A stretch of DNA of 61,231 nucleotides, filler included. It is 3 parts of 3 records of this genome, joined end to end, with 100 filler letters (N's around TTAATTAATTAA, not from the genome) between each part and the next. Parts side by side here need not be neighbours in the genome. Positions count along the whole stretch, not along the records: positions 22,762 to 46,903 come from DRR723986_3519; 2 more parts are not named here. One strand, given 5' to 3'. Below are positions 8,801 to 47,003 of the stretch, in pieces. Both the position numbers and the translations under genes were made by a program. The notes under the pieces were generated by a model, which worked only from the letters and a program-made list of their open reading frames with translations, had not been told where the DNA came from and searched no databases. Position 1 is the first letter of the stretch. Every line of letters starts with the position of its first letter.

Positions 8801-9506
8801 ACTTGGTGAACAACTTGCTGCTGTAAATGCCGAACTGGACGACCTAAAACAGGAAACAGGTGGCATCGCTGAGAAATTGCGCCACAATGCCGAACAAGAT
8901 CGTCAATCGGGGCAGCTACAGATTTTACTCAGTGACAAACAAAAAGACAAAGCCAGGTGGGAGTTGCTTAACGAGTTGATTGGATCCAGTTCCGGCCAAA
9001 CCTTCAGTCGTTACGCACAGTCCCTGACGCTGCAGCGTCTGGTAGCACTTGCCAACCGCCATGTTATCAAGTTGAATGACCGCTATAGAATTCGCAAACA
9101 GCCCTCTGACGAGGCCAAGGCGGGCGCTGAGCTGGAACTGGAAATCGTCGATCGCCACCAGGCCGATACCGTACGGCCGATGCAAAGTCTGTCAGGTGGT
9201 GAGAGTTTTCTGATTAGTCTGGGGTTGGCACTGGGACTGGCAGAGTTAGCCGGCCGCAACAACCGCATTGATTCACTCTTTATAGATGAAGGGTTTGGGT
9301 CGCTCGACTCTACAACCCTGGAAAGTGCATTAAACGTATTGGAGACCTTACAGGCACAGGGCAAGACGATCGGGGTGATTTCGCACGTTGAGGCTCTCAA
9401 AGAACGAATTGCCATCCAGATTCAAGTGCACAAGTTGAGCGGCGGTATCAGCACCACGGAGGTGGTTTCCAGGTTAGGCGTCAGTTCAATTCCGCTCAAT
9501 ACCTGA
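5805..9506 (+). CDS. sbcC: SbcC (Rad50-like SMC ATPase)
   Basis: Walker A GATGSGKS, long coiled coils, zinc hook CPLCGS, signature LSGGE, Walker B LFIDEGFGSLD, IGVISHV. Confidence 0.95.
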   Translation: MKILKLHLRNINSLQGEHTFDFEDICAGGNLFAITGATGSGKSSILDALTLALYGRTPRYGTKSSADVMSRHTGECLAEVTFEAHAKRYRSKWSLHRARSRPEGKLQTPHMEVAHALDGEIIESGVNKTPNVVRELCGLDFDQFRRSVLLAQGEFAAFLRADSNERSKLLERITGTDIYKEISKFAYQKAAGVRLEWQQMKDRLADINLLDAEEIEQLQSRNDAITGLITELENKRKELSQKVQLRANLEQTQAQLQELKNKKQELAERQSASAEQFKALERHETSLRFAPESSQFDALKRSATELESEIQSLTSKQQAEQARQTELERKVIESAAQRTEHNNKLQKLHELLPQVRTLDRQIETTSKEMDAARLVHEVAGETLEIREKALAQSCSDRDNLEQSAQQTHSWLENNSIDAELSETISAIVAKVETWRSAQSLANDQSEMHKTIITELGSLDLERGQHQRSLAVDQRELEHVMAQLANNDLQQIEVRQAELQQRDQVLNASMELLRELTRLQEHHALNITELDEQITAAQALQAELNGTTAALEKLETERSAAAENLRLHLEILNRARKIQQLEAERDKLIAGEPCPLCGSKEHPLVQEYQEANASSEEDAHQKSAEQLRKIEAQITEARSGFEFKKQRQQELADVQKSIAQRIQQLGQQYAELLPEDNNFTRGIRIEDSKQGRAVLVHVKEEHADAKRALQECREQLEQSHKLRSNAESLQSRISNHRTALELLERQAQTLKEKRQALAAQEEHRREDLRLRSDAAREILRKFLPPEVLINPPSDREMQALQQRISLYRENQREFERLQRDHQAAIKTAAMQLERKDEAAKALAQEENNVSTLTKLLGELQNQRRAIFGSDDADKRLQELQTTLDASSSLHQQAEQSLLALNTSLQKTQTTLDIHTGRLQEIHRDISRHGDTLRAALRQAGFASIEDQRQAILSSQKAAELKEHKEMLSSAIEQNETLSRDKQLALEQLEATAPASEEAAALGEQLAAVNAELDDLKQETGGIAEKLRHNAEQDRQSGQLQILLSDKQKDKARWELLNELIGSSSGQTFSRYAQSLTLQRLVALANRHVIKLNDRYRIRKQPSDEAKAGAELELEIVDRHQADTVRPMQSLSGGESFLISLGLALGLAELAGRNNRIDSLFIDEGFGSLDSTTLESALNVLETLQAQGKTIGVISHVEALKERIAIQIQVHKLSGGISTTEVVSRLGVSSIPLNT

Positions 9507-10855
9507 TTTCAGCCTCGGCCTTTTATGCGCCTGCATCTGAAGACTTGGTCCAGCCAGGTTCGGACTATGCGGTTTTCTCCTGCCGGTAAGAAGCCATGCA
9601 CAAAGTTCCTTTAACTTTAATCGGTTAAATTCGTTTGACCCGGTTTTGTCAAGTCAGATAAATACTTTAGTCATTATCTACCAGTATACACCAGCAGCCT
9701 GCACTACAACAAACAGGTAAAAGCGAATATGTTTTTACAGGTGAGAGCTCTGCCGGCTGAAGCATGTGAGCCCAAACTATCGCCGGACGGCAGGCGATAG
9801 TCATTCAGATTGACCCTGAGAAACCTGTCTAATAAATTGTGCAGTAAAATTCGGCCATCTATATTTTTGTCTGACAGTTTGGCAAATATGCAAAATAATT
9901 ATGTCGCTTATTAGCGTGAATATCGCAGGCCACAAACAGCTTTGTGAGGACGCAAAAAAAAGCTTGACTTTGTTAGTGTTTTAGTCAGTCTAAGCATTTT
10001 CAGGATGTCACCAGTATACTCAACCTTTGATGTCACTTTGGGTTTAGAACATTTAGAAAAATTCGTCTTTCCGTTATCACTTTGGCTGATACTTAAACAG
10101 ATTGATTTAGCAAATAGGTAACGACTTGACCGCAACTAAATCGCTAGGGCTGCACTGGTACTGGCTTGGCTGCTTTTCTGCCGGCGGAAGTCATAGTTTG
10201 CCGGTGTGAGGTCAAAAGTGTTGGCGCTGTGAGCATTGCTTTAACATTGAACTATTGAGGGCCTCACTAATTAAACAAACTTTTTCTGTTACCATTTTTC
10301 GGGTAGCGGGTTATTGTGCTGTAGTCAAACGCGTTCCGGCACGGTAGAGCGACACTCTCTTCAACGCGATTGTTCACACCTAAGAATCAGTATTTTTACT
10401 GAGGGAATTATTTTTACCCCCTTTTTTTAAATAATTCCTGCGTAAATTTGTGCTGTCACAAGGCACATAATGTTTTGCATAACTTGATACTGGAGATGAT
10501 TGGAATAAGTCGAACATACTGTCCGCAGTATGTAAACAGGTATGCTTCCAATCGATATGGTTTGTTAATACACAAGCAGTAAGTTCCTTGATTATTCTTG
10601 GCACATAGTTCTTTCGCGACCCCCCCTTAACTCGCGGTAAGCTCAGATCATCAATTCTCTCTCTGTTGGTACACAGAGGGCAGGAAGGATATTGTCTGGA
10701 CAACAGTATCGAGTACTTAACACAATTATAATTCAGCATGTTAAACATTCTGAATTGAATCGTTGCGCCGCGACTCCGTGGGGCCACAACACACTATTGT
10801 TCGAAAGTCTTTTTTCTAAAAATTCAATTTGTAGTTTTTACGAGGCAATTAGGAA

Positions 10856-13800
10856 ATGTTGATACCAGGTTTTGTAAACAGGCACGTAATGCCGTTCGCA
10901 GTTGCTGTGATGTTTGTTTTAGCAAGTTTTGCTGTACAAGCTCAGAACCAACTGGAATTTTCGCTGCAGAATCAGCGCATTAGCAGCGATTGTAGCGAAT
11001 ACACAGCCGAGCTGTGGGTAAACGTATCGGAAGGTAATGACTGGGAAATTACCAATAGTGAAATTGGAATTTCTTACAACACTGACGCTCTGACTGCGCA
11101 GGATCTTTCACCGGCATATGAAGCAAATCAATCTCTGATTGACGCTGATGTAGATATCTCTCAGTCTCCAGGAACGAACTACGTTCGCCTGACACTCCTG
11201 AAATCTTCAGGGTCAGCGCTGATCAGTGGTTCCTTTAAACTTCTGACACTGAAGTTTGATATCGAAGACCCTGAGCTGATGGACAACCTCAGTTTCATTA
11301 CTACAGACCCGACGACAAAAATTTTCGATAGCAGTGTTCAACTCGAAAGTGACTGCGGTACCGCCAGCTGTTTTGGCGTTACCGACCCAGCCGCCCGCAC
11401 TGTTGGAGCAACCACGATCCTTAGCGCGCCTGGTGATGCTGTTGCATGTACCGGCGATGAACTGGTTTGGAACATTAGCGTCAATGCTTGTAGCCCAGTC
11501 TACGATTGGCAAAAACTCGTAGACGCTCAGTGGGAGTCAACCGACGTTGCAACTGCTAGTTATACGATCGACGAAGTTTCAACCGACGATGCCGGAACTT
11601 ATCGTGTGCTGGTAACAGCTGACGATGCTGATGACGTTATCACGAAAGAATTTGAACTGACAGTTAATGTTACTCCAAGTGTTACCGAACAGCCAGAAGC
11701 TGCAGTTGCCTGCGCAGGCGACGAAGTTTCTTTTTCCTTCGAAGCTGAAGGTGAAGACCTGGCGTACGAATGGCAGGTTGATGCCGGTGATGGTTTTGAA
11801 GTAATTGAGAAGCAGGAAGAAAACATCCTCATCTTAGCTGCTGTAACTGCAGACATGGATGGCTATGTCTACCGCGCTCGTATCTCCAACGACTGTGAAG
11901 TCTTCACGGAAGAAGTTGAACTGACAGTCAATACTGCTCCAGTATTTACCACTCAGCCTGAAAACCTTGCTGCCTGCGAAACAACAGATGCTGAATTCAG
12001 CATTGAGTTGACCGGCCAGCCGGCTCCTTCTATCCAGTGGGAAACATATGACGCGGAAAACGACGAATGGGCAGCTATCAAAGACGGCACCGAAGAAACA
12101 CTGGTTGTTGCAGAAGTCAGCGCAGACCTTGAAGGCATGCGTTACCGTGCTGTAATCAGCAATGACTGCGGTGAAGTGACTTCCGAAGAAGCAGTCCTGA
12201 CCGTTTACATCGCGCCAGTCGTTGAGACCCAAGCCGAAGATGCTGTAGCATGTGAAGGCACAGACGCTGAATTCTCAATCGAAGTCAGCGGTACACCTGA
12301 GCCAACTATCCAATGGGAAGTTGACCGCGGTGATGGTTTTGAAGTTCTTGACGGTCAAAACGAAAGCACACTTTCGCTGCTTGCTGTTACTTCAAGAATG
12401 AACCGTTACGTCTACCGCGCCCTCGTTGCTAACGAGTGTGCCGAAGTCTACACCGAAGAAGCTGAACTGACAGTAAATACAGCTCCTCTGGTCGCCGAAC
12501 AAACATCCGACGTCGCTGCTTGCGAAGGCACTGACGCTGAGTTCACGATTGCCTTTACCGGCCAACCATTCCCAACAGTTCAGTGGCAAACATATGACGC
12601 TAAAGCTGATGAGTGGCTTGACATCGAAGAAGCTACAGAAGAAACACTGGTAATTGAAGAAGTATCCGCAGACATGGATGGCATGAGCTACCGTGCAGTT
12701 CTCACGAACGAATGCGGCGCTGAGATCTCCAATGAAGTCTTCCTGATCTATCAGGAAGCGCCGGTATTCGCAACAGAACTGGAAGACGGCGAAGTCTGTG
12801 ACGGCGAAGACGTCACCTTCGAATACGAAGCTACAGGTATCCCTGCACCAACAGTTCGCTGGGAAACAATGTCGGCCGAAGAAGAAGAATGGCAAGTAAT
12901 CGACGGTGAAACAGGAACATCCTACACCTTCACTCCTGCTGATGGTGATGACGGCCGTATGGTTCGTGTTGTCCTGAGCAATGACTGCGGTGAAGTTACT
13001 TCCGAAGCCGAAGTTGTTTACTCGCTCTTCCCGGAAATTACCGGTCAGCCAAACAAAGGCGAAGACCTGGTTGTTTGCGAAAACGACGAAGTCCTTGTCT
13101 CGGTTGAAGCACAAGGTAGCCGCCTGAACTATATCTGGTCACGCGATGGTGAAAACCTTGATGACCAAACTGGTTCGGCACTGAACTTCAAAGAAGTTGC
13201 CGTTGAAAATGCTGGTACATATGTCGTCACCGTCTCCAACGACTGTGATGAAGTAACGTCCGAGCGTTTTAACATCGTTGTTAACATGCAGCCGGCAATC
13301 ACGGCACAGCCGCAAGCCGATCAAACCCTCTGTGAACTCGAAGAATTCGAACTCAGCGTTGAAGCTGTCGGTACCGATCTGGCATACCAATGGCAGAAAT
13401 TTGACGGTGAAGAGTGGATTGACCTCAAAGAAGGCAACACGAATACTCTGAACTACGAAGAAGTTCAGCTGGACATGGCCGGTGATTACCGCGTCGTTGT
13501 CAGCGGCCTCTGCGAAGACGTTCAGACGTCCGAAACCGCTTCGCTCACAGTCAATCAGCTTCCATTCATCACAAACGTGAGCGAGTCTCAAACGATTTGT
13601 GAACTGGAAAGTGTTCAGTTTAGCGTTGAAGCAGGCGGTACAGGCATCGTATACCAATGGTACTTTGACGGTGATGAGCTTGAAGGTGAAATCAACAACA
13701 CACTGACGATCAATCCTATCCAACTCGAAGACGAAGGTCGTTACCACGTAGTCGTTAGCGGTGTCTGCCAGCCATTGGTAGAGTCCGAGACGATTGAACT

Positions 13801-21877: not shown

Positions 21878-22660
21878 TTAGCGCAGCAGTAAACCGCGTT
21901 CGTGCACATGTCCCGGAGCGGAACTATTGCGTAAACGCAGGACATAAAAACCGGCTGCCAGGTTCAAGCCGGCCAATCCGAATCGCAGGGAGTGCTCTCC
22001 GGCGGCCATATCTTTTGTTAATAAACGAGATATCAGTTCACCACGCAGATTAAACAATTCGAGCGTATAGGTTCCAAACTGTTTAACAGTCAAAGGCAGC
22101 GTCACCATGCCATTACGCGGAGCAGGGTTGGGGTAATGTTGGCCCAGGGTGAAGGGACGTGGAGTTTCCGCGCGCTCTACAGTAGAAGTCAGAGTCTTGA
22201 CACCTTCATAAATACGAAAGCAACTGGTTGAGCTGTATTGGCTCGTAGCCAGATCGCCAATGCCGTCACCGGTGACGTCGCCGATGTAACGGACGGTTGC
22301 AAATCCGTCACAGTCTACCGCAACCCTCCCAATCTCAATTGCATTTGACAATTGGCTATCAAAGGCGGAACAAACAACAAAACCAAACCTTGTGCCAAAG
22401 CCCCAATCTGGAATTGTATCAGAGTTAACGCTTCCACTCAGCGGAATTACCGTTGATGCCGGAGTAACTGTCGGCTCGAACACCGTCCCAACTTCGAACC
22501 GATCATTTATAAGCCTAAACAATTGTACCTCATCCCGGTCTTTTCCAGGTACCATAAATACACCCAGATCACCATTCTCAAAATGTGCTACTGTGCCAGA
22601 AACATAATCAAACCCTTCTTCCGGCCGCAACTCCGCATCACTAATCGAGTCGAGCATGAC
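21878..22660 (-). CDS. FG-GAP-repeat protein with T9SS C-terminal domain, 5'-truncated by the contig end
   Basis: IGDVTGDGIGDLA FG-GAP motif; LGQHYPNP...LELFNLRGE...GFYVLRL sorting domain; ORF runs into the N spacer. Confidence 0.8.
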   Translation of the reverse strand, partial: VMLDSISDAELRPEEGFDYVSGTVAHFENGDLGVFMVPGKDRDEVQLFRLINDRFEVGTVFEPTVTPASTVIPLSGSVNSDTIPDWGFGTRFGFVVCSAFDSQLSNAIEIGRVAVDCDGFATVRYIGDVTGDGIGDLATSQYSSTSCFRIYEGVKTLTSTVERAETPRPFTLGQHYPNPAPRNGMVTLPLTVKQFGTYTLELFNLRGELISRLLTKDMAAGEHSLRFGLAGLNLAAGFYVLRLRNSSAPGHVHERGLLLR

Positions 22661-22661
22661 A

Positions 22662-22761
22662 NNNNNNNNNNNNNNNNNNNNNNNNNNNNNNNNNNNNNNN
22701 NNNNNTTAATTAATTAANNNNNNNNNNNNNNNNNNNNNNNNNNNNNNNNNNNNNNNNNNNN
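22662..22761. other. Artificial contig-joining spacer
   Basis: 44 N + TTAATTAATTAA (stops in all six frames, 22706-22717) + 44 N; gene content changes across it. Confidence 0.97.
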
Positions 22762-22893
22762 GTGCTGTTTGCCGCCATGCGCGAGCGCATCGCCGTTGCC
22801 GATGTACCGGTGCCCTTCAAAGGTGCCGCGGTTGGCATGGTAACCGCCGGGCTGATGTCTCTCGCCTTTATGGGCTTTGCCGGACTGGTATAG
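22762..22893 (+). CDS. rsxA: Electron transport complex subunit RsxA/RnfA, C-terminal fragment (missing from the ORF track)
   Basis: Translates [43 protein letters not shown], directly upstream of rsxB. Confidence 0.92.
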
Positions 22894-22903
22894 CGGAGCC
22901 TTT

Positions 22904-23509
22904 ATGATCGAGCTAATTACTCAACACCCCTTCGCTGCAGCGCTACTGGCACTGGTCAGTCTGGGCCTAGTATTCGGCGCACTACTGGGTTTTGCTTCGG
23001 TAAAATTTAAGACCGAAGGCGACCCCATCGCCGATCAGGTAGAAGCGCTGCTGCCGCAAACCCAGTGTGGCCAATGCGGCTACCCTGGCTGCCGCCCCTA
23101 TGCCGAAGCCATTGCCAACGGCGACGACATTAACAAGTGCCCGCCCGGCGGCGAGGCGACCATCGCGGCGCTTGCCGACCTGCTGGGTGTGGAGGCCAAA
23201 CCCCTCGACGCCGCCGAAGAAGCCGTACCCTCGGTGGCCTATATTCGCGAGGACGAATGCATCGGCTGTACCAAGTGCATTCAAGCCTGCCCCGTCGACG
23301 CCATACTTGGCGCCGCCAAGCATATGCACACCGTTATCGCGAGCGAGTGCACCGGCTGTGACCTTTGTGTTGAGCCCTGCCCGGTGGATTGCATAGAAAT
23401 GCGGCCCATCGAGACCACATTGCAGACCTGGCACTGGGACAAGCCGCAGCCGACAGAAGACCTAATCGCCAGCGACCGCCGCGGCAACTCGCCGATTGAA
23501 GCGGCCTGA
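22904..23509 (+). CDS. rsxB: Electron transport complex subunit RsxB/RnfB
   Basis: [23 protein letters not shown], two ferredoxin motifs [12 protein letters not shown] and [19 protein letters not shown] before ATG 22904. Confidence 0.95.
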
Positions 23510-36946: not shown

Positions 36947-38125
36947 CTACAGCCCCAGCCCAAATTTCGCGATGATATTTTTTTGTACTTCGTTACTGCC
37001 GCCGTAAATGGTGCAGGCCCGACCGTACATGTACTCCCGTCGCGCTTGGTCGCCGTAGTCATGGCCCAGCGATGACAAATCGGCATCGGCCGGCAGCACG
37101 CTGCCGTACAGCCCCGCCACATCAAAGAACAAATTCTGCACAGCCTGTTGCAGCTCCGTACCTTTGAGCTTGAGCAGGGACGACTCCATGCCCGGTGCGC
37201 CGCCATTGGCCACAGTGGCCAGTACGCGCAGCTCGGTGTATTCCAGCGCCATCAACTCCATTTCAATGTCGGCCATGCGCGCCTGAAACGTGGGGTTATT
37301 CAGCAGCGGCTGGCCGTCGTCGTTCTCATCGGCCGCCAGCTTGCGCACGTTATTCAGCACTTGCTTGCAGTAAGCGATACCAGACAGCGCAGTGCGCTCG
37401 TGGCTGAGCAGCGCCTTGGCATAGGTCCAGCCCTGATTCTCTTCACCAATGCGGTTTACCACCGGCACCCGCACGTTTTCAAAGCTGACTTCGTTTAAGT
37501 GATGCTCACCATCAATGGCAATAATCGGCGACACGGTGATGCCAGGCGTGCGCATATCAATCAGCAAGAAGCTGATGCCCTGCTGCGGCTTGCCGCTGTT
37601 GTCTGTGCGTACCAGCGCAAACATCCAATCGGCATACTGGGCGTAAGTGGTCCAGATTTTAGTGCCGTTAATCACATAGTCGTCGCCATCGCGTTCGGCG
37701 CGGGTTTGCAAACCGGCCAGGTCACTGCCCGCGCCCGGCTCGGAGTAGCCCTGACACCACCAGGTGTCACCGTTGAGAATGCCGGGCAAGAATTGCTGCT
37801 TTTGTTCCTCGGTGCCAAAGGTGTAAATCACCGGCCCGACCATCTTCAAACCAAAGGGCGGCACATCCGGCGCGCCGGCTTCAGCCAGGGCGCTGTCGAA
37901 AATGTATTTCTGGGTATCACTCCAACCACAGCCGCCGTGTTCAACCGGCCAGCCCGGCGCGACCCAACCCTTGTCAAAACGCTTTTTCTGCCACTCAATG
38001 GTCGCGGCTTTAAAGGTTTTGGGGTCGCGAATTCGCGCGGCCATGTCGTCGTTAAAATTGTCGCGCAAAAACGCCCGAACTTCCTCTTGGAAGGCGAGCT
38101 CTTCTGCAGAAAATGTCGCGTGCAT
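36947..38125 (-). CDS. Acyl-CoA dehydrogenase
   Basis: WCQGYSEPGAGSDLA, INGTKIWTT, IYGGSNEVQKNII. Confidence 0.93.
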   Translation of the reverse strand: MHATFSAEELAFQEEVRAFLRDNFNDDMAARIRDPKTFKAATIEWQKKRFDKGWVAPGWPVEHGGCGWSDTQKYIFDSALAEAGAPDVPPFGLKMVGPVIYTFGTEEQKQQFLPGILNGDTWWCQGYSEPGAGSDLAGLQTRAERDGDDYVINGTKIWTTYAQYADWMFALVRTDNSGKPQQGISFLLIDMRTPGITVSPIIAIDGEHHLNEVSFENVRVPVVNRIGEENQGWTYAKALLSHERTALSGIAYCKQVLNNVRKLAADENDDGQPLLNNPTFQARMADIEMELMALEYTELRVLATVANGGAPGMESSLLKLKGTELQQAVQNLFFDVAGLYGSVLPADADLSSLGHDYGDQARREYMYGRACTIYGGSNEVQKNIIAKFGLGL

Positions 38126-38247
38126 AGCTTTCTCTCTATTATTGGCAGGCCACGCTGCATCCTGAATCTAGGCTATCAGCAGCGTACAGAAAGGGGTTAG
38201 TCCCCGGGCGCCGTTTGTTGGCAGCGGCCGACCCGGGGCAAGCAGAC

Positions 38248-39021
38248 TTACCGCGGCTGCATGCGAATGCCGCCGTCCATACGGATCACTTCAGCATTGA
38301 GGTAGTCGTTGTCGATTATGTGCATCGCCAGGCTGGCAATTTCCTCGGGCTGGCCGAGGCGCTTGGGGTTAAGTACCGACTGCGCCAACGACTGGCGCGC
38401 TTCTTCAGGCAAAGACGCCAACAGCGGCGTGTCGATCAAGCCCGGTGCAATGGTGTTTACGCGAATGCCGTAGCTCGCCAAGTCGCGGGCAATTGGCAGC
38501 GTCATGCCAACAACACCGCCTTTACTGGCGCTGTAGGCAGCCTGGCCAATTTGGCCGTCGAAGGCGGCAACCGATGCGGTGTTGATAATCACCCCGCGGC
38601 CACCAAATTCGTCGATGGGGTCCTGCTTGGCCATGGCTTCAGCCGCCAAGCGCAGCACATTGAACGAGCCCACCAGGTTAATGTCGATCACACGCTTAAA
38701 CTGGTCCAGCGGGAAGGCGCCCTGCTTGCCCACTGTTTTAATGGCGTTGCCAATACCGGCGAAATTACAGCAGATGTGAATCGCGCCGAAGGCCTCCAAA
38801 CAGGCCTTCACCGCCGCTTCCACAGAGGCTTCGTCCGCCACATTGGTGGCAACAAACAGCGCTTTGTCACTGCCCAGCTGCTCAGCCAGGGCCTGACCGA
38901 GGGCTTCGTTCATATCCAGAATGGCGACCTTGCCGCCCGCTGCCACAATCGACTCAACCGTCGCTTTACCCAAACCCGATGCACCGCCGGTGACCAGGGC
39001 AACTTTTCCGTTTACATCCAT
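38248..39021 (-). CDS. SDR-family 3-hydroxyacyl-CoA dehydrogenase (HSD10/type II-like)
   Basis: TGGASGLG, NTASVAAFDGQIGQAAYSASKGG, RMDGGIRM. Confidence 0.92.
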   Translation of the reverse strand: MDVNGKVALVTGGASGLGKATVESIVAAGGKVAILDMNEALGQALAEQLGSDKALFVATNVADEASVEAAVKACLEAFGAIHICCNFAGIGNAIKTVGKQGAFPLDQFKRVIDINLVGSFNVLRLAAEAMAKQDPIDEFGGRGVIINTASVAAFDGQIGQAAYSASKGGVVGMTLPIARDLASYGIRVNTIAPGLIDTPLLASLPEEARQSLAQSVLNPKRLGQPEEIASLAMHIIDNDYLNAEVIRMDGGIRMQPR

Positions 39022-39056
39022 CTTTCTACTCCTAAACGTTATGAGTGAAACCGCGC

Positions 39057-40229
39057 CTAGGCGCGGTCAACAAAGGGAACGAAGCTGTCGGCGAATACAT
39101 CGCGGGCAATAATCAGCTTCATAATTTCTGAGGTACCGGCAAAAATGCGGGTAATACGCGCGTCGCAGTACATACGGGAAATCGGATACTCGTCCATGTA
39201 ACCCGCACCACCGTGCAGCTGCACGCCTTCGTCAACCATGCGGCACAGCAACTCACTGGTATACAGCTTGGCTTTGGCGGCATCTTCTGCGGTTAACTGA
39301 CCACGGTTATGCACCGCAACACACTGGTCGACATAGGCCTGGGCCACGTCCAATTCGGTGCGCAGTTCGGCCATTTTGAACTGGGTGTTCTGCATTTTTG
39401 ACAGCGGCTTACCAAACACCTTGCGCTGCTCACAGAATTCACGCGTCACTTCAAACGCCTTCTGCGCTGAAGACAAAAAGCCGCAGGCGCCAATCAAACG
39501 CTCTTCAGCCAGACCTTCCATCAGGTAAATAAAGCCCATGGTTGGGTCGCCCAGTACGTTCTCTTTGGGAATACGCACTTCATTGAAGAACAGTTCGGCA
39601 GTGTCCTGCGCCTTCATGCCCATCTTCTTCAAATTGCGGCCGCGCTCGAAGCCTTCCATGCCACGCTCCACCAAAAACAGGCCCATCGCGTGGGGGTTGT
39701 TTTCCGGGTCGGTCTTGGCCGCTACGATCACCACATCGGAATTAATGCCGTTGGTGATATACGTTTTGTTACCACTCAGCAGCCAGTGGTCGCCCATGTC
39801 TTTAGCCACGGCGCGCATACCCGCAAGGTCGGAACCGGCGTCGGGCTCGGTCATCGCCACTGCCAGAATCAATTCACCACTGACGCAGCGCGGTAAAAAG
39901 CGCGCCTTTTGCTCTTCACTGCCAAAGCGATCTATGTAGGGGCCAACCAAACGGCTGTGCAGGGTATTCGCCCAGTCACCGGCGTAAACGTTGGCGGTTT
40001 CTTCAATAATGATCTGCTCAAAACGGAAGTCGCGGTCGCCCATGCCGCCGTACTGCTCGTCGGGCCAAACCATCAAAAAGCCCTGTTCACCGGCCTTTTT
40101 AAATACCTCCCGGTCAACAATGCCCTGCTCGCGCCAGGCATCCACATTCGGGGCCACTTCCTGTTCCAGGAATTTGCGGTAGGCCGAACGAAACATTTGC
40201 TGCTCTTCTGTAAAATCTCTGGGAAGCAT
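39057..40229 (-). CDS. Acyl-CoA dehydrogenase (long-chain type), probable start MLPRD at 40229
   Basis: AMTEPDAGSDL, GNKTYITNG, QDTAELFF, QLHGGAGY, IFAGTSEIMK. Confidence 0.92.
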   Translation of the reverse strand: MLPRDFTEEQQMFRSAYRKFLEQEVAPNVDAWREQGIVDREVFKKAGEQGFLMVWPDEQYGGMGDRDFRFEQIIIEETANVYAGDWANTLHSRLVGPYIDRFGSEEQKARFLPRCVSGELILAVAMTEPDAGSDLAGMRAVAKDMGDHWLLSGNKTYITNGINSDVVIVAAKTDPENNPHAMGLFLVERGMEGFERGRNLKKMGMKAQDTAELFFNEVRIPKENVLGDPTMGFIYLMEGLAEERLIGACGFLSSAQKAFEVTREFCEQRKVFGKPLSKMQNTQFKMAELRTELDVAQAYVDQCVAVHNRGQLTAEDAAKAKLYTSELLCRMVDEGVQLHGGAGYMDEYPISRMYCDARITRIFAGTSEIMKLIIARDVFADSFVPFVDRA

Positions 40230-40517
40230 GGTTCTTCTCTCGTTATTCAATCGGCGCGCTGGCGCCGAGGTTTGTTTTTCCTGCCAGAGCCGAGGCTCGG
40301 CACTGCGTGTCGACGCACAGCATCGCCTCGCCGCCCCCAAAGCGGCAATGATTGACCGTGACAACCACTTGACATTTTCTTACAAAAAACGGGAATCCCC
40401 CGCCCACTGGCGCGTGTCGACCACCGCCGTCGCCTGCCGACTAGACCCTAAAAAACGCCTGCCCTACTGTGTCTGCCAAGATGTGCCGCACTGCGGCTAG
40501 CCACAACGAGGAACACC

Positions 40518-41876
40518 ATGAACAGCACCAGCGTTGACTACCAAGACTACCCGCGCCAACCCAATCGCAAGCTGACGCATATTCCCGGTGACAGCGGCCT
40601 GCCCCTGTTCGGCCAGACCTTCAGTTTTTTGAAGAACTACAAAGCGCTCACCGAAATGCGCTACCGCAAATACGGCAAAATTTCGCGCGGCAATACCCTG
40701 TTCCAACACAGCCTGACCCTGCTCGGCCCCGAAGCGAACGAACTGGTACTAAAAAACAGCGACGGCCAGTTCTCCAGCATGCTGGCCTGGAACCCATTAC
40801 TGGACAGACTCTTCCCCAACGGGCTGATGCTGAAAGACGCCGAGGCCCACCGCTACGACCGTAAAATTCTGCAAGGCGCGTTTAAAAAGGCTTCTATCGA
40901 AGGCTATTTGCACACCATGAGCCCGCACCTGGAGCGCGGTCTGGAAGAATGGCCCAAGGGCAAAGAGTTCCACTTTCAACACGCCGTAAAACAACTGCTG
41001 CTGGAAGTGGCCGCCGAGGTGTTTTTAGGTGTGGAAATGGGCGAAGAAGCCAGCGGCGTGAATACCGCCTTCGTGGACACCATGCTTGCCTCAATGGCGG
41101 TATTAAAGCTCCCCATCCCCGGCACGCTTTGGCACCGCGGCCTGACCGGCCGCAAACATTTAGAAGACTTTGTAATGGCGCATATCGACGATAAGCGCAA
41201 ACACGAAGGCCGGGATATTTTCTCGCAGATCTGCCACGCCACCGATGAAGACGGCAACTACTTCTCCGACGAAGCGGTGCGCGACCATATTATTTTCCTA
41301 CTGTTCGCTGCCCACGACACCACAACCAGCACGCTGTGCTCCATTGTTTACGCACTGGCCAAGAACCCCGCGTGGCAGCAGCGGCTGCGCGAGGAATACG
41401 CGGCTATCGGCAAAGACCAGCTCGACTACGACGACCTGAATAAACTCGACGACAGTAAACTGGTGTTTAAAGAAGCCCTGCGCATGTATCCCCCCGTGCC
41501 GGCCATTCCGCGCCGCACTCTGAAAGACATGGACATTTTTGGCTACCACGTGCCCAAAAACACCGCAGTGGCCATCTCACCGCTACTCACCCACTACATG
41601 GAAGAGTATTGGAGCAACCCCAATGACTTCGACCCCGAACGCTTTTCCAAAGAACGCGCCGAAGACAAAAAGCACTTCTTCCAATGGGTACCCTTTGGCG
41701 GCGGCGCACACAAATGCCTGGGCCTGAACTTTGCCGAAGTGCAAACCAAGCTGTTCCTGTTCCACCTGCTGCGTCGCTACAACATAAAAGTGAAAGACGG
41801 CTATGAAATGCCCCGCAGCTGGGTGCCGCTGATCTTCCCTGCCGACGGCCTGCCTGTGAGCTTCGAGCCCATCTGA
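40518..41876 (+). CDS. Cytochrome P450
   Basis: I-helix AAHDTT, ExxR (EALR), FDPERF, heme motif FGGGAHKCLG. Confidence 0.95.
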   Translation: MNSTSVDYQDYPRQPNRKLTHIPGDSGLPLFGQTFSFLKNYKALTEMRYRKYGKISRGNTLFQHSLTLLGPEANELVLKNSDGQFSSMLAWNPLLDRLFPNGLMLKDAEAHRYDRKILQGAFKKASIEGYLHTMSPHLERGLEEWPKGKEFHFQHAVKQLLLEVAAEVFLGVEMGEEASGVNTAFVDTMLASMAVLKLPIPGTLWHRGLTGRKHLEDFVMAHIDDKRKHEGRDIFSQICHATDEDGNYFSDEAVRDHIIFLLFAAHDTTTSTLCSIVYALAKNPAWQQRLREEYAAIGKDQLDYDDLNKLDDSKLVFKEALRMYPPVPAIPRRTLKDMDIFGYHVPKNTAVAISPLLTHYMEEYWSNPNDFDPERFSKERAEDKKHFFQWVPFGGGAHKCLGLNFAEVQTKLFLFHLLRRYNIKVKDGYEMPRSWVPLIFPADGLPVSFEPI

Positions 41877-41896
41877 AACGACTAGTAAAACCATCT

Positions 41897-41934
41897 AACG
41901 GCGGCTCGCGTACACGGGCCGTCGTTTTTATTTT
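41897..41934 (+). terminator. Rho-independent terminator after the P450 gene
   Basis: aacggcggctcg...cgggccgtcgtt followed by tttatttt. Confidence 0.7.
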
Positions 41935-42082
41935 CAGTGGATACTTATGCTTAGCAACGCTCCGCTATCGCGATGCGCGAACGTCCTGCGTGCCTTCGCG
42001 CCAAGCACCGCCGTGCGCCGTTAGACTGCACAGCGATGAATAAGTAGGCCACCACACAACATAACTGCACGAGAAAACCACC

Positions 42083-42520
42083 ATGCCCGCTCCTTACTTC
42101 CCCGAATGCGAAAGCTCAGACTGGCAAACCATGCCAATGGTAGAAGGCACCTCCTTCGACAGCCACCTCGGCGCATTTGAATTTCGTAAACTCGGCAATA
42201 ACACCGCCCAGGCCCGCTTTGGCTGCGACGACAACAGTAAAAATATTCAACACGGCATACACGGCGGCTACCTCGCCGCCCGCGCCGAACAAGTGTTTTA
42301 TCTGCCACTCTATACCGAGCGCTGCGTGGCATTGGGGCGCGTGGTCACCATCGATTTCAGTATGCAGTTTTTACAGGGCGGCAAGCTCGGGCAAGATATC
42401 ATCGCCGATGTTGAGCTACTTCAGGAAACCGGCCGCATGGGCTTTACGCGCGGCACGCTCAGTCAGGCAGGAAAGATACTGTGCAGCTTTAGCGCCACAC
42501 TACGAAAGTTGCCCGCTTAG
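42083..42520 (+). CDS. PaaI-family hotdog-fold thioesterase
   Basis: NIQHGIHGGYL, VTIDFSMQFL, TGRMGF. Confidence 0.85.
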   Translation: MPAPYFPECESSDWQTMPMVEGTSFDSHLGAFEFRKLGNNTAQARFGCDDNSKNIQHGIHGGYLAARAEQVFYLPLYTERCVALGRVVTIDFSMQFLQGGKLGQDIIADVELLQETGRMGFTRGTLSQAGKILCSFSATLRKLPA

Positions 42521-42575
42521 GGCTTAATCGGCAAGAAAGCGGCAGTGGAGCGAAATGGAGTACGCGGAGCAAACG

Positions 42576-42791
42576 CTACTTCCAACCCTGCCGCCAGTTA
42601 TCCGTATTCTTCAACACCGTCCAGTCAATCGACTCGGTGCGCTTGGACATTACCGCCTCAATCACGCAGTCCACCACCGCTCCCTCTTCATCAAACTCCA
42701 CCTCCGTCACCATAAAGTGCTTTTCTTTGTTGACTGGCTGAACCGCCGTCCACTTGCTGTGGAGGAGTTTTTTGGGGTTGATAGGGTTCAT
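42576..42791 (-). CDS. Small Trp-rich conserved protein (TIGR02450-like)
   Basis: INPKKLLHSKWTAVQPVNKEKHFMVT...IEAV...IDW..LK....WRQGW; AAAGGAG RBS. Confidence 0.8.
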   Translation of the reverse strand: MNPINPKKLLHSKWTAVQPVNKEKHFMVTEVEFDEEGAVVDCVIEAVMSKRTESIDWTVLKNTDNWRQGWK

Positions 42792-42933
42792 GGTGAAGTT
42801 TGCTCCTTTGCGGCTCATGATACGAAGGCCGCACGGCTATATGGGTGTAGGTATCTTTACAGGTCAACGCATCCTGAACTATACGAGGAATTGCATCAAA
42901 CCGGGGTACTAAGCGAGCGCACGCCGCGCCTGG

Positions 42934-43650
42934 TTAGGGCTTTCTACACTTTCTAATATCTCGAACTAAGAAAGAATTCCCCTGCCCTCGCTTAAGCTCG
43001 AACAGATCAATTGCTTTGAACAGACTACTCAGATTTTTGAACCCGTAGTTTCTACAATCGAACGACGTCCTGTTAGAGATGTTTGCACCAACAGGCCCTA
43101 GAGGTGCCCAACCATCTTCATCTTCAGTGGCCTCAATTGCCTGGCGTAGAAGATTTATTAGCTTAGTATTGGATTTTATATTCTTCGGTTTAGAACTCTT
43201 TTCAGATTCTATCTCTTCGGAGTGATCCAGAAAGAGAAATTTTGAGCATGCATTTACAAAAGGTGCAGGTGTCTTTCGTTCACCGAACCCCAATACCACC
43301 TTCCCCTCGGCCAGTGCTCTCGTCACCATTGGAGTGAAATCACTATCCGATGAAACAAAGCACATAACATCAATGTCTTTGGTATACATGACGTCCATCG
43401 CGTCTATAACCAAAGCTATATCAGACGCATTTTTACCCTTGGTTAGGTCATACTGCTGCACTGGCTGGATAGCGTACTCATGAAGCAGGTCTTCCCATGG
43501 CTTGAGATTTGGCGACTTCCAGTTTCCATACGCCTTACGTATCGTCACCACTCCGTACTTTGCTACCTCGCTGAGGACATCTTCGAACCTGCTGGCCGGC
43601 GCGTTGTCAGCATCAATAAACAGGGCTATTTTTTGTTTTATCTCGTCCAT
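42934..43650 (-). CDS. NYN-domain (LabA/DUF88) protein with C-terminal OST-HTH/LOTUS domain; cassette 5
   Basis: IALFIDADN, RKAYGNW, KNASDIALVIDAMD, SSDSDFTP, FDCRNYGFKNLSSL; stop lies within CCCTAAC. Confidence 0.88.
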   Translation of the reverse strand: MDEIKQKIALFIDADNAPASRFEDVLSEVAKYGVVTIRKAYGNWKSPNLKPWEDLLHEYAIQPVQQYDLTKGKNASDIALVIDAMDVMYTKDIDVMCFVSSDSDFTPMVTRALAEGKVVLGFGERKTPAPFVNACSKFLFLDHSEEIESEKSSKPKNIKSNTKLINLLRQAIEATEDEDGWAPLGPVGANISNRTSFDCRNYGFKNLSSLFKAIDLFELKRGQGNSFLVRDIRKCRKP

Positions 43651-43685
43651 CTTTAACTCATTCACCCTTATTAGATTTTGTGCCA

Positions 43686-43746
43686 TGGTAACGGGTGTCA
43701 ACAGCGTGCAGTTATAGTTGGCGCTCCGTTGACCACAACGTTACGT
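43686..43746 (-). other. attC site (61 bp) after cassette 4
   Basis: Minus strand ACGTAAC...gtcaac-gg-agcg...cgct-gttgac...GTTACCA; inner inverted repeat with a bulge. Confidence 0.7.
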
Positions 43747-44103
43747 GTTGTTCCGGCCGTTGAAGTAGAAGGCAGTTACACCGCCAATCAATGTACCTGC
43801 GAAAGCGAGAAACTCGGGGAAACGCGGATTATTGAAGAGTGCAAGAACAAATACGAAAATCAGGATCAGAAACACGATCCCCATGGCCAGTAACGGCTTG
43901 GTTCGTTTATTCAAGCGCTCAGTCGTCGGTTCAGACTGTCCGAGTCCACCACAAGTACCACAGGCCAGGCCAACGAAGTCTCTACCCTTTAATTCGTGGT
44001 ATTTCGCACAAGCCAAACAACTCGAGCCATTTGGCCCAGACTTACAGACACCCGTCTCCTCACAGTGACGACAAGGATACAAATTCGACCTTACTTCCTG
44101 CAT
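43741..44103 (-). CDS. Hypothetical Cys-rich (DnaJ-zinc-finger-like) protein with two C-terminal TM helices; cassette 4
   Basis: CRHCEETGVC, CLAC, CGTCGGLG, followed by two hydrophobic segments. Confidence 0.8.
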   Translation of the reverse strand: MQEVRSNLYPCRHCEETGVCKSGPNGSSCLACAKYHELKGRDFVGLACGTCGGLGQSEPTTERLNKRTKPLLAMGIVFLILIFVFVLALFNNPRFPEFLAFAGTLIGGVTAFYFNGRNNT

Positions 44104-44121
44104 TTCTATACTTCCCTGTAC

Positions 44122-44179
44122 ACCTAACGCCTATGCACACCTGCGGACATAAGCCGCGTAGGGCTGCGCTTTCTTAAAT
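44122..44179 (-). other. Damaged attC after cassette 3 (right arm intact, left arm missing)
   Basis: Minus strand ATTTAAG (ATTTAAC expected)...gtccgcaggtgtgcataggc-GTTAGGT. Confidence 0.6.
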
Positions 44180-44635
44180 GGCTCTCGGCACTCGATCTTC
44201 CTGAGCCACACGTTGATTTAATTGCCGGAGTTTATTGAGAGAGATTTGAAACTGGCCATTACTCGGCATCCGCTTCCCTTTGAATTGCTCCCAAACAAGG
44301 TCTCCTGGCCCGTTGTAAATTTCCTCAAACGTACCGTCAGACATGATCTTTATGATAATCGTATGCTGCGGCTGACTCCGAAATGCTACAGAGTTGGATT
44401 GCGTTGCCTTGATCTCAACTTCCAAGCCGCATTCGGTGATGGCGTCATAGCCTTTGTTGGACGCAGTCTTGAGATCGAGTTTGTATGCATCAGCAACAAG
44501 GCACTCACCTAAACTGCCAACCATATGGCCGTCCGGGGTAAAATGCCTACCCGGGAACATCGCCTCCAATTCGCTGACCGTGGCATAGAGTTGCTTGACC
44601 AAAGTCCGAAATTTATCGTGATCGATCATAGGCAT
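44174..44635 (-). CDS. PD-(D/E)XK restriction-endonuclease-like protein (DUF6998-like); cassette 3
   Basis: FTPDGHMVGSLGE...GYDA...VEIKAT; ATG overlaps the upstream core site GTTAAAT. Confidence 0.78.
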   Translation of the reverse strand: MPMIDHDKFRTLVKQLYATVSELEAMFPGRHFTPDGHMVGSLGECLVADAYKLDLKTASNKGYDAITECGLEVEIKATQSNSVAFRSQPQHTIIIKIMSDGTFEEIYNGPGDLVWEQFKGKRMPSNGQFQISLNKLRQLNQRVAQEDRVPRAI

Positions 44636-44723
44636 TTAACGCCAGCCGCAACGGCGCCAAAATAAGCGCAGCGTTTTTGGTATCCGGCGACCGTAGGGAG
44701 CATATTGCCGGCTCTTGTTAACC
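44634..44723 (-). other. attC site (90 bp) after cassette 2
   Basis: Minus strand GGTTAAC aagagccggcaa...ccaaaa acgctgcgctta ttttgg...ttgcggctggc GTTAAAT. Confidence 0.85.
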
Positions 44724-46010
44724 ATCGCCTGCGGCTGGCTCCGTTTTGGCATATTGCTTTAGACCGACATCAGTCAGCCACTCGTCAATCTCACCATCTT
44801 TTACATTTTTATTCGTTCTCATTGCATTTATAACAGCCCCTATTTCAAAACTATTTCTAATTTCAAAATTTTCACCGCAGGCCCTTATAATTTTTTCAAC
44901 CTGCTCTTTTGTAAAATCAGACGCATATCGAGTAACCGTTGCTGAAAAGCTGTTTGCCTGATCGAAAGACCCTGATCCCGCGTATAATTCAGCTATTCGA
45001 TCTCCAACTTGGATTGGCAAATCAAAGAATAATGGTTCTGCTATCTCTGCCCTTGTTGTTTTTAGGAGGCGCCTTTGAGCCGACTTTGCTAACCCCTCAT
45101 GTGAAAGCAATAAATCGAGGTCATCAAGATTGTCGAGCGGGAGATTCTCAACGTATGATTCAAGCTTTTGCTTCACATCTGACTCTAAATACTCCCAGCT
45201 TTCCGTAAGCCTTTGAATCACTATAAACGTCTTAAAAAGTTCGTTATCGGAAAGAGTTCTAATTATATTTGATAGCTTTGTTTTTAATGTATCCACATAG
45301 ATTTCTTTGTGTATTTCCTCAATAGCATTAAGTGCTGACGAAATCCTCCAGCCTTCCTTGTAATCAATTTTTTCTTTTAACAACCTTTTCAATAGAACGA
45401 CTACAAAATTTCTAGTTAAGCTTTCCCTAGCTTTAAATAGAGGACTATTCCTAAGCGCCGTTACTGCCTTACTAAGATTTGTTGGGAAGTATTCAGATTT
45501 TACCTCACTAATGAGGCTTTCAAGGGCGTACTTACCTTGCGCAGGTGGGAACTGTAGCAAATATTCGACAGCCGAACGAATATGAACTCTCGCGAGCTCG
45601 GCAGAGGGATTAAATATCTCACCATCCGATGTCATCGAAGGATGCGCACATCTATTTCTATCTTGCTGCAACCTCTCTAAGTCTATGAATTCAATGTGGG
45701 AAATAAGTTCTAGTTTGTCCCTAGCTTTTTGAAGTATGTCTCTTTCAAATTTTAACGAGCTGGCGATATCTCCTGCTTTCCTTGCCTTTTCGAACTCTTC
45801 CAACTGCAGCTCTGCTTCTTTATCGCCAGCGAGAGATAGATCTTTCAGCTTATCAATAATGTCGAACGAAACCGCGATCCATGTAGATACGATAGCTGAT
45901 CGAAATGCGCCAGATTTATAGCAGGAAACAGATTCTTTAATGTAACTTTTTGCCTTCTCATCTCTGCACTTGAGAACAAGTTCATCTAAATCTGACAAAG
46001 GTGATGCCAC
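44718..46010 (-). CDS. Hypothetical 430-aa protein with N-terminal HEPN-like RxxxxH motif and helical C-terminal region; cassette 2
   Basis: AAAGGAG RBS + GTG; ESVSCYKSGAFRSAIVSTW...DRNRCAHP; stop lies within GGTTAAC. Confidence 0.82.
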   Translation of the reverse strand: MASPLSDLDELVLKCRDEKAKSYIKESVSCYKSGAFRSAIVSTWIAVSFDIIDKLKDLSLAGDKEAELQLEEFEKARKAGDIASSLKFERDILQKARDKLELISHIEFIDLERLQQDRNRCAHPSMTSDGEIFNPSAELARVHIRSAVEYLLQFPPAQGKYALESLISEVKSEYFPTNLSKAVTALRNSPLFKARESLTRNFVVVLLKRLLKEKIDYKEGWRISSALNAIEEIHKEIYVDTLKTKLSNIIRTLSDNELFKTFIVIQRLTESWEYLESDVKQKLESYVENLPLDNLDDLDLLLSHEGLAKSAQRRLLKTTRAEIAEPLFFDLPIQVGDRIAELYAGSGSFDQANSFSATVTRYASDFTKEQVEKIIRACGENFEIRNSFEIGAVINAMRTNKNVKDGEIDEWLTDVGLKQYAKTEPAAGDG

Positions 46011-46027
46011 TAGATACTCCTTTAGAT

Positions 46028-46147
46028 AGTTAACGCCAACCGCAGAGGCAGACAGAACGGAGCGCCTTTTTTGCTAATTGTTGAGCGCCAGCTAATAGCA
46101 CAAAAGGCACAGAATTTTGGCTGTCCGAATGCCGATTTTTGTTATGT
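46028..46147 (-). other. attC site (120 bp) after cassette 1
   Basis: Minus strand ACATAAC...gcctttt.tgcta...tagca..aaaaggc...GTTAACT, a long imperfect palindrome. Confidence 0.85.
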
Positions 46148-46651
46148 GATATTTTCAGTTTTGTTTTTCCGGATTTCGGCATTTCTAAACTCAACGTTCA
46201 CGCCCTCTAGGTTAAATCCGCTCTTTACAAATTTAGAAACCACACACTTAAACTCACAATGAACTCCAATATAAGAGCGATTATCCTTCCATAACCTAGC
46301 TATATGATTGGCCTTGGATTCAGGAATATCTCCATGCAAATATAGCTGCGCGACCTCCCCCGATTTGTATATAGAACTTTTAATATGCTGAATTTTTATT
46401 TCACTTCCGGCACAGAAAAAACTGAACTCAGACCTATCCAGCTCCACCTCAAATGGAGACATGTTGATTATTTGAAACCAAATTCCATATGTAGGCGGCT
46501 CGCCTAAATCTACACTTACCGAGCTATGGCGGGCCTTTACGTCAAAAATAATCAAATCCGCCAAGCGCTGCCGGTTAAATATCCGTTTCAGAATCCAATT
46601 CGGCAACCAACGTAGCCAACGCCATATTTCAGTTACGGATAAGATTTCCAA
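46142..46651 (-). CDS. Orphan hypothetical protein (169 aa); cassette 1
   Basis: AGGAGG RBS + TTG; AT-rich; stop lies within ACATAAC. Confidence 0.75.
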   Translation of the reverse strand: MEILSVTEIWRWLRWLPNWILKRIFNRQRLADLIIFDVKARHSSVSVDLGEPPTYGIWFQIINMSPFEVELDRSEFSFFCAGSEIKIQHIKSSIYKSGEVAQLYLHGDIPESKANHIARLWKDNRSYIGVHCEFKCVVSKFVKSGFNLEGVNVEFRNAEIRKNKTENIT

Positions 46652-46659
46652 TTCGTCCT

Positions 46660-46903
46660 CCTAACTCACATACATTTGCATATCGCGCACGCTCGGTTTG
46701 CCTGGGCACAACTCTGCGACCCAATAACATAAGCGATTGAATTTACGCGTAAACGGACGTATTCACACAAAACCGGGGATTGTGATAACGCGCATGCGCA
46801 TTTATCTTGATGGCGGGGTGTCATAGCTCTTGCCCGTATTTCCTTATGTGGCTGTTTTGCCGCGCATTTTTGTAAATCGCTCAGGATTAACGCGCATTCC
46901 TTG
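46660..46903 (-). promoter_or_regulatory. Putative attI / cassette-promoter region
   Basis: Non-coding, no attC palindrome; junction ...atgcaaat-GTATGT matches cassette 1's expected core GTTATGT minus one T. Confidence 0.45.
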
Positions 46904-47003
46904 NNNNNNNNNNNNNNNNNNNNNNNNNNNNNNNNNNNNNNNNNNNNTTAATTAATTAANNNNNNNNNNNNNNNNNNNNNNNNNNNNNNNNNNNNNNNNN
47001 NNN
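46904..47003. other. Artificial contig-joining spacer
   Basis: 44 N + TTAATTAATTAA (46948-46959) + 44 N. Confidence 0.97.

Follow-up and report, generated by a model that had tools for sequence, protein, structure and literature searches.

The closest described relative of the gene considered here is PD-T7-3, a defence system that came from a functional selection (Vassallo et al. 2022, PMC9519451) and that is called DARNA in a 2026 preprint (10.64898/2026.02.22.705581). DARNA is a dodecameric tRNA anticodon nuclease that becomes active once its C-terminal helical domain binds single-stranded DNA (ssDNA) presented by the SSB (ssDNA-binding protein) of a phage. The two activities are divided between domains, with the C-terminal domain (amino acids [aa] 160-456) binding the activating ssDNA and the HEPN domain cleaving tRNA (10.64898/2026.02.22.705581). 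Here, we describe a gene for a 430-aa protein (44718..46010, minus strand, GTG start, TAA stop) in a 61,231-nucleotide stretch of three joined contigs, hereafter the window, in which positions 22,762 to 46,903 come from DRR723986_3519.

The window gene resembles DARNA in several respects. Both encode a single polypeptide (430 aa vs ~456 aa), and their Rx4H motifs are at residues 118/123 and 117/122, respectively. The C-terminal helical-repeat domain of the window protein can be aligned with that of DARNA up to aa 387, with conserved motifs at the ssDNA-contact positions. Neither gene has a partner gene, and both are located on mobile DNA. The settings differ: the window copy belongs to a marine gammaproteobacterium and is carried in a cassette with attC boundaries, whereas the E. 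coli copy is in a P2 prophage hotspot. The best explanation of the locus, and in our judgement a fairly probable one, is that its product is a defence enzyme of the PD-T7-3/DARNA family, which acts as a single protein by abortive infection and whose gene lies in a cassette bounded by attC sites. Parts of this are already known: the family is present in PADLOC, has PDB entries and a mechanistic preprint, and defence genes in integron cassettes are established. What is new is a divergent family member, and its points of note are its sensor variants and its cassette-borne lineage.

Phage-defence genes in integron cassettes are known from the BRiCs of mobile integrons and from Vibrio chromosomal integrons, and a HEPN (AbiU2) cassette from V. 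mimicus has been described (10.64898/2026.03.17.712381; 10.1101/2024.07.02.601719). The window gene is like these in being a small defence gene packaged in an attC-bounded cassette and differs in that no integrase is visible beside its array. In the main texts, supplements excluded, the term PD-T7 occurs in neither of the two papers and the term DARNA does not occur in 10.64898/2026.03.17.712381. With the window gene, the PD-T7-3/DARNA family would be added to those defence genes for which attC cassettes serve as vehicles; this is no new kind of system.

Membership of the PD-T7-3/DARNA family

The PADLOC profile for PD-T7-3 (PDLC04108) matched aa 8-385 of the window protein over profile positions 6-396 of 432 (E 1.3e-33, 114.8 bits). 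A sequence search of the PDB returned the entries 'Dandelion' (9wxf, 460 aa, 12 chains, E 8.8e-17) and 'Dandelion-hepn' (9wx2, E 1.6e-15); a literature search found no paper describing the 'Dandelion' entries. The sole annotated relative in the phage collection was open reading frame 1 (ORF1) of the P2-EC30 prophage Z-region (AJ512676.1), which, over the stretches printed in the alignments, has the same sequence as the PDB Dandelion chain. The arginine and histidine of the ORF1 motif are residues 133 and 138, and they become 117 and 122 when 16 extra N-terminal residues are left out by counting from the second Met. This numbering is that of R117 and H122 in the preprint (10.64898/2026.02.22.705581), and ORF1 is DARNA.

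A family alignment of 104 sequences (A1), with identity down to 32%, was used for all residue counts given below. Compared with ORF1 by hhalign, this alignment gave a probability of 99.3% and an E value of 1.4e-20 over 373 columns, placing aa 3-387 of the window protein on ORF1 19-423. The Pfam-A and NCBIfam libraries contained no significant match to the 430-aa protein. A precomputed Pfam accession, PF27235.1, was attached to 119 of the 120 homologues among the matches listed.

A word-indexed search in which 8000 candidates were scored yielded 782 proteins at E <= 0.001, the best of them 84% identical to the window protein. An exhaustive search of 50%-identity representatives yielded 1983 clusters at E <= 0.001, including 743 at E <= 1e-30. 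The relatives came from Pseudomonadota, Chloroflexota, Acidobacteriota, Cyanobacteria, and other phyla, as well as from plasmids (156 plasmid records), and 126 homologue stretches were confirmed using one genome per species. Judged from these sequence matches, the 430-aa protein is a distant, intact member of the PD-T7-3/DARNA family. A hypothetical protein, together with a very large family of 'hypothetical' proteins, thus receives a specific prediction, namely that of an ssDNA-triggered HEPN tRNase.

The Rx4H motif and the predicted fold

The ORF is intact and has two regions. The N-terminal HEPN domain covers approximately aa 1-158 (45537..46010, minus strand) and contains the catalytic Rx4H motif R118-N-R-C-A-H123 (45642..45659, minus strand), with the R118 codon at 45657-45659 and the H123 codon at 45642-45644. 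The remainder, approximately aa 159-430 (44721..45536, minus strand), is an all-helical repeat domain and the putative sensor. Rx4H is present once in the protein. The bare motif is no better than chance, since at least one Rx4H was found in 1271 of 5000 shuffled versions of the protein. It is meaningful because R118 and H123 are conserved in homologues, not because of the pattern alone: R118 was found in 104/104 sequences and H123 in 103/104. C121 was equally conserved (103/104), and position 119 was N in 81 sequences and H in 19, so that the block D117-R-[NH]-R-C-A-H-P124 is near-fixed across the alignment. R118 and H123 align with R117 and H122 of DARNA, which are catalytic (10.64898/2026.02.22.705581).

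An AlphaFold2 (AF2) model built from the 104-sequence alignment was all-helical, with a mean pLDDT of 94.7 and a pTM of 0.85, and placed the Rx4H motif at the end of helix 105-122. In a wide structural search, the top 7 chains were of the HEPN type (4 were so titled) and matched on residues 16-158. According to the model, RxxxxH is within a HEPN fold. Foldseek was also run against a copy of the PDB extending to 2026-04-08, in which the Dandelion chains are absent, and no match at E <= 0.001 was returned; the weak rows contained only ARM/HEAT repeat proteins, with Pds5B at rank 30. A likeness to Pds5B is also given for DARNA in the preprint (10.64898/2026.02.22.705581). Prediction of a two-copy complex gave a score of 0.25 against a mark of 0.32, which is evidence neither for nor against dimerisation.

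These results agree well with a preliminary description of the gene. It had placed R-N-R-C-A-H at 45642-45659, which is exact, behind a helical N-terminal segment (ESVSCYKSGAFRSAIVSTW), which corresponds to aa 26-44. It had also described the remaining ~280 aa as Leu/Glu/Lys-rich and helical-looking, in keeping with the composition of aa 151-430 (L 12.5%, E 9.6%, K 7.9%) and with the AF2 model. Both of its expectations for the motif, conservation of R and H among homologues and a surrounding HEPN fold, were confirmed, and the motif was not found to lie outside such a fold.

The predicted sensor pocket and the proposed mechanism

In DARNA, the ssDNA bases are contacted by F368, D372, N402, Q403, Y405, W406, and N408. 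D372 and Q403 form base-specific hydrogen bonds, the W406A substitution inactivates the protein, and residues giving specificity for 'CT' ssDNA are described (10.64898/2026.02.22.705581). Two motifs of the window protein align with these positions. The first, S-x-S-F-x-x-A-N at aa 346-353 (44952..44975, minus strand), aligns with F368 and D372, and F368 is kept as F349. The second, N-x-[QE]-x-x-x-S at aa 381-388 (44847..44870, minus strand), aligns with N401-N408, and the contacts N402, Y405, and N408 correspond in it to F382, R385, and F388. In the family, the first motif takes the form S-x-S-[FYW]-x-x-A-N, with an aromatic residue at position 349 in 96/104 sequences, A352 in 96/104, and N353 in 85/104. 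In the second, N381 is found in 98/104 sequences and S387 in 84/104; at position 383, 61 sequences have Q and 27 have E, the residue of the window protein.

Nowhere else in the distal C-terminal domain is conservation across the 104 sequences as high as in these two motifs. Since they coincide with the base-contact positions of DARNA, the alignment supports a ligand-reading pocket shared across the family, with specificity residues that would have changed by lineage. The base-reading residues of DARNA fall on a C-terminal core conserved family-wide, which supports a shared sensing principle, and E383 and N353 would be natural variants useful for specificity studies.

By homology to DARNA, the HEPN domains of the window protein would come together in pairs, each pair creating a composite active site, and the pairs would probably be part of a higher oligomer. 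In uninfected cells, the enzyme would be off. During infection, the phage SSB would make ssDNA accessible, and the distal C-terminal pocket (predicted residues F349, N353, N381, E383, and S387) would read its bases. Binding of ssDNA would free the RNase, tRNA anticodon loops would be cut, translation would stop, and the infection would be aborted. The preliminary description had proposed a single-gene sensor-effector in which a HEPN RNase is licensed by a C-terminal helical sensor. This proposal is supported by the architecture, which is that of PD-T7-3/DARNA, and the mechanism is drawn from the preprint on the E. coli protein (10.64898/2026.02.22.705581).

Several points weigh against this explanation. 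Identity to DARNA is low, at 28% over 202 residues by BLASTP and 20% over the hhalign alignment. The BLASTP match is limited to aa 14-212, with nothing alignable beyond aa 212, and DARNA is on a very long branch of the family tree. R98, an RNA contact in DARNA, is replaced by K99, and F6, N33, and E347, the dodecamer-interface residues whose substitution breaks the dodecamer (10.64898/2026.02.22.705581), are not kept and correspond to S6, S33, and F328. Among the ssDNA contacts, D372 corresponds to N353, Q403 to E383, and the essential W406 to N386. At the DNA level, no sigma-70-like promoter was found by a consensus-based, insensitive scan of the minus strand from the gene to the contig end (46011-46903), and neither an integrase nor a Pc promoter is visible. 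Expression of the HEPN gene is, therefore, unproven.

Because several base-contact residues differ from those of DARNA, the activating sequence motif may differ too. A possible, though somewhat doubtful, alternative goes further and holds that the protein belongs to the same family and has the same RNase effector, but that its cassette-borne clade responds to a different trigger, such as another ssDNA motif, another nucleic-acid form, or another phage product. The replacements at D372, Q403, and W406 would fit this alternative, since they affect the 'CT'-specificity residues, and so would position 383, where the close relatives of the window protein also have E while the family mostly has Q (61/104). 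However, the pocket scaffold is kept (aromatic 349, A352, N381, and S387). The alignment near W406 is also uncertain, and F388, two positions on and F or Y in 53/104 sequences, could substitute for the tryptophan. Moreover, only one family member has been characterised.

The cassette carrying the gene

The 5' boundary of the HEPN cassette (46011..46034, minus strand) consists of a GTTAACT core (46028-46034) and a 23-nt leader with an AAGGAG ribosome-binding site (RBS; 46017-46022). At the other end is a 90-nt attC-like site (44634..44723, minus strand) with GGTTAAC...GTTAAAT ends and a duplex energy of -19.5 kcal/mol, and the TAA stop of the gene is inside its GGTTAAC core. When folded as DNA, the ends of this site pair with bulges between them, forming an imperfect hairpin (z-score -0.8, unremarkable). 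It could be aligned with attC sites flanking homologues; AAC in the core never varies across these sites, for which TAACAAG...GCGTTA is the consensus. The preceding cassette, which encodes a 169-aa protein, has a 120-nt attC-like site (46028..46147, minus strand) recognised by the attC finder, DNA folding, and alignment, and a third clear hairpin site of 61 nt is at 43686-43746. The attC-like calls come from a crude finder and not from a curated attC model. This finder flagged 7/80 homologue downstreams and missed short or degenerate sites that the eye can recognise, for example in L002 and L016, and its count was not used as a rate. In a MAFFT alignment, the 3' ends of 11 attC-like sites lined up too raggedly for a covariance model.

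The cassette contains one ORF only. In 42400-46903, no tandem repeats were found at a minimum score of 30, and no Rfam match was better than E 0.12. The preliminary description of a stand-alone cassette that lacks an antitoxin or nucleotidyltransferase partner thus holds, given the single ORF, the GTTAACT core with its leader, the 90-nt attC-like site, and the absence of a second ORF, tandem repeats, or an Rfam match.

Similar boundaries were seen at other homologue loci (numbered L). At the closest of these, GTTA[AG]NN is located at -21 to -23 of the start and is followed by AGGAG, and the upstream sequence is unrelated between loci. Classic attC sites flank several homologues (L005, L006, L007, and L014-L017). 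Across 49 homologue loci, the GTTRRNN box was present in 8/10 loci whose protein was 60% or more identical to that of the window, in 5/10 at 50-60%, and in 3/29 below 50%; the background in random 45-nt windows was 0.118. IntI scored above the curated cut-off in 4/5 homologue genomes; where it shared a contig with the gene, the distance between them exceeded 100 kb.

Fifty-one rows were placed on a quick maximum-likelihood tree, from which L004, L011, L026, and L070 were omitted because of a stop in the matched frame. The window protein fell in an 11-row clade (SH-aLRT 96) in which Gammaproteobacteria are mixed with metagenome-assembled genomes (MAGs) labelled Chloroflexota, Aminicenantes, and Fibrobacterota. 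The box was present in 8/11 rows inside this clade vs 8/39 elsewhere, a contrast that is descriptive only because relatives share labels. On the whole tree, the box label was weakly clustered, with 11 changes, a number equalled by 28-34 of 500 shuffles. We tentatively suggest, as a view that we find doubtful on balance, that the window protein belongs to a cassette-borne DARNA lineage which attC cassettes carry from phylum to phylum and whose sensor has been re-tuned (N353, E383, and no equivalent of W406). If true, this lineage would recognise a different ssDNA motif or replication intermediate and would possibly have a different oligomeric state.

It is less likely, and we consider it improbable, that the gene is intact but silent cargo, a promoterless cassette in an integrase-less array that is unexpressed in the present host. 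Such a reading would account for the lack of a promoter-like site upstream on the minus strand and for the outcome of a tblastn search with the IntI of a relative, which detected no integron integrase in the 61-kb window. In that relative, Spongiibacter marinus (L082), the corresponding locus is flanked by TonB-receptor genes and not by intI, and IntI is on another contig. On the other hand, the ORF is unbroken, no family-conserved residue has been lost from it, and its RBS is good. The insensitivity of the promoter scan also has to be considered, and a promoter may lie beyond the contig end, which is 890 nt upstream. Furthermore, transcription read-through from upstream cassettes is usual in integron arrays. 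A search of sequencing runs returned no RNA run; it gave 11 rows with part of the cassette and 2 with at least half of its words.

Defence neighbourhood and absence of a partner gene

The genes around the homologues were compared with those around a control gene by counting, among the ORFs that lie no farther than 6 kb away and encode 150 aa or more, those with a PADLOC match at E <= 1e-5. The 16 homologues used were mostly outside cassettes, and the control was the P450 housekeeping gene of the window, for which loci in 13 related genomes were taken. PADLOC matches were found for 15/132 neighbours of the homologues, in 10/16 loci, and for 1/132 control neighbours, in 1/13 loci (Fisher p 0.0004), a comparison that is rough because relatedness makes the control loci non-independent. 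The enrichment of homologues in defence islands, put forward as a check of the preliminary description, was thereby observed.

The clearest case was found in Parapusillimonas granuli (L023 4106-12935), where the DARNA-family gene has a Shosta pair (ShosA/ShosT) on one side and, on the other, a type III-A retron consisting of a phosphoribosyltransferase (PRTase) and a reverse transcriptase (RT), followed by SIR2-HerA. This region is a compact defence island. Other neighbours of homologues included matches to DrmD, AriA/Gabija-like proteins, IetA, and restriction enzymes.

When the four neighbouring cassette proteins were compared with 80 homologue loci, only the 169-aa protein gave a match, to a relative in a Phycisphaeraceae MAG (L066; 28% identity, E 3e-17) encoded 4 kb from the DARNA-family gene. 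No partner gene is conserved beside the homologues, and the system is a single-gene one. Toxin-antitoxin cassettes are common in chromosomal integrons, but it is very improbable that the HEPN protein is a toxin that holds the cassette array in place, by addiction or stabilisation, and not a phage-defence protein. Its cassette has no MNT or other antitoxin ORF, RNA repeats, or Rfam match, and no partner is conserved in the 80 loci. The protein is also built, over its full length, like a self-regulated sensor-effector, and most homologues are outside cassettes, beside defence systems.

Comparison with other HEPN systems

A single-protein enzyme of the PD-T7-3/DARNA family can be set apart from other HEPN systems at this locus. 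Compared with HepT-MNT (SO_3166/SO_3165, 5yep; 7ae2), the HEPN cassette and its neighbours lack an MNT antitoxin gene, and the neighbouring 169-aa and DUF6998 proteins are each encoded in a cassette of their own. The window protein also has an extra domain of ~270 aa, and its regulation is predicted to be by ligand and not by AMPylation. In contrast to type III RNA-antitoxin HEPN systems (AbiF), there is no repeated RNA antitoxin array beside the gene. Csm6/Csx1 of type III CRISPR-Cas differ in having a CARF sensor where the window protein has a helical repeat. No CRISPR context is present, and the ligand would be ssDNA instead of cyclic oligoadenylate.

PrrC is restrained by a restriction-modification partner and carries an ABC-ATPase domain. 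Neither a restriction-modification partner nor an ABC-ATPase domain is found at the window gene, which sets it apart from PrrC/RloC. The predicted outcome, tRNA anticodon-loop cleavage as abortive infection, would be the same, and PrrC is listed as a HEPN tRNA nuclease in the DARNA preprint (10.64898/2026.02.22.705581).

Neighbouring cassettes and further observations

The HEPN cassette is part of an array of five small minus-strand ORFs. Between these ORFs are short sites that can form hairpins and have the ends TAAC...GTTA. The GC content drops from ~0.58 in the flanks to 0.39-0.47 between 43 and 47 kb. Past the contig end at 46903, positions 46904-47003 are N except for a TTAATTAATTAA spacer in the middle. 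Because the window consists of joined contigs, the oligopeptide ABC transporter genes on the far side of this run may not be adjacent to the cassette array in the genome.

Upstream of the HEPN gene, the 169-aa protein (46142-46651, minus strand) had no Pfam or PADLOC match. Next on the other side is a DUF6998 protein (44174-44635, minus strand; Pfam E 9.9e-59), which had a weak PADLOC match to a type II methyl-directed restriction enzyme over aa 39-82 (E 7.6e-07) and may be another small defence gene. It is followed by a 120-aa Cys-rich protein (43741-44103, minus strand) with CxxC-type pairs and then a hydrophobic C-terminal segment, for which no Pfam or PADLOC match was found. The last ORF (42934-43701, minus strand, likely true start 43651) encodes an NYN ribonuclease with an OST-HTH/LOTUS RNA-binding domain and had no PADLOC match. 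This NYN-LOTUS cassette is also present in the Spongiibacter marinus record (L082 12418-13134), where it starts at an internal Met.

The flanking core genes are 96-100% identical to those in the records of Spongiibacter marinus DSM 17750 and Neomelitea salexigens DSM 19753. In a blastn comparison, L082 7483-13143 is the counterpart of window 38000-43659 (96.4%) and L082 13165-13396 that of window 46672-46903 (85%), with only ~21 nt between both matches in L082. The block of four cassettes encoding the 169-aa, 430-aa, DUF6998, and 120-aa proteins (43660..46671, minus strand) is, accordingly, absent from this closest sequenced relative, and its junctions are at TAAC/GTTA cores. The Neomelitea salexigens record diverges from the window past 42830. 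As far as the assembly shows, the array looks like an attC cassette cluster without an adjacent integrase.

The sequence at 46672-46903, corresponding to L082 13165-13560, belongs to a non-coding stretch of ~430 nt that is 85% conserved and directly precedes the TonB-receptor genes in the relative. Located at the integrase-proximal side of the array, it shows no resemblance to IntI and could be an attI-like or promoter region of an array that lacks an integrase. In L082 13559-15923, the TonB-dependent receptor is split into two overlapping ORFs (plug and barrel), suggesting a frameshift or a sequencing error. Further dips in GC content were seen in the window at 9000-11000 (0.41-0.48) and 22000-23000 (0.46), which may mark other acquired segments.

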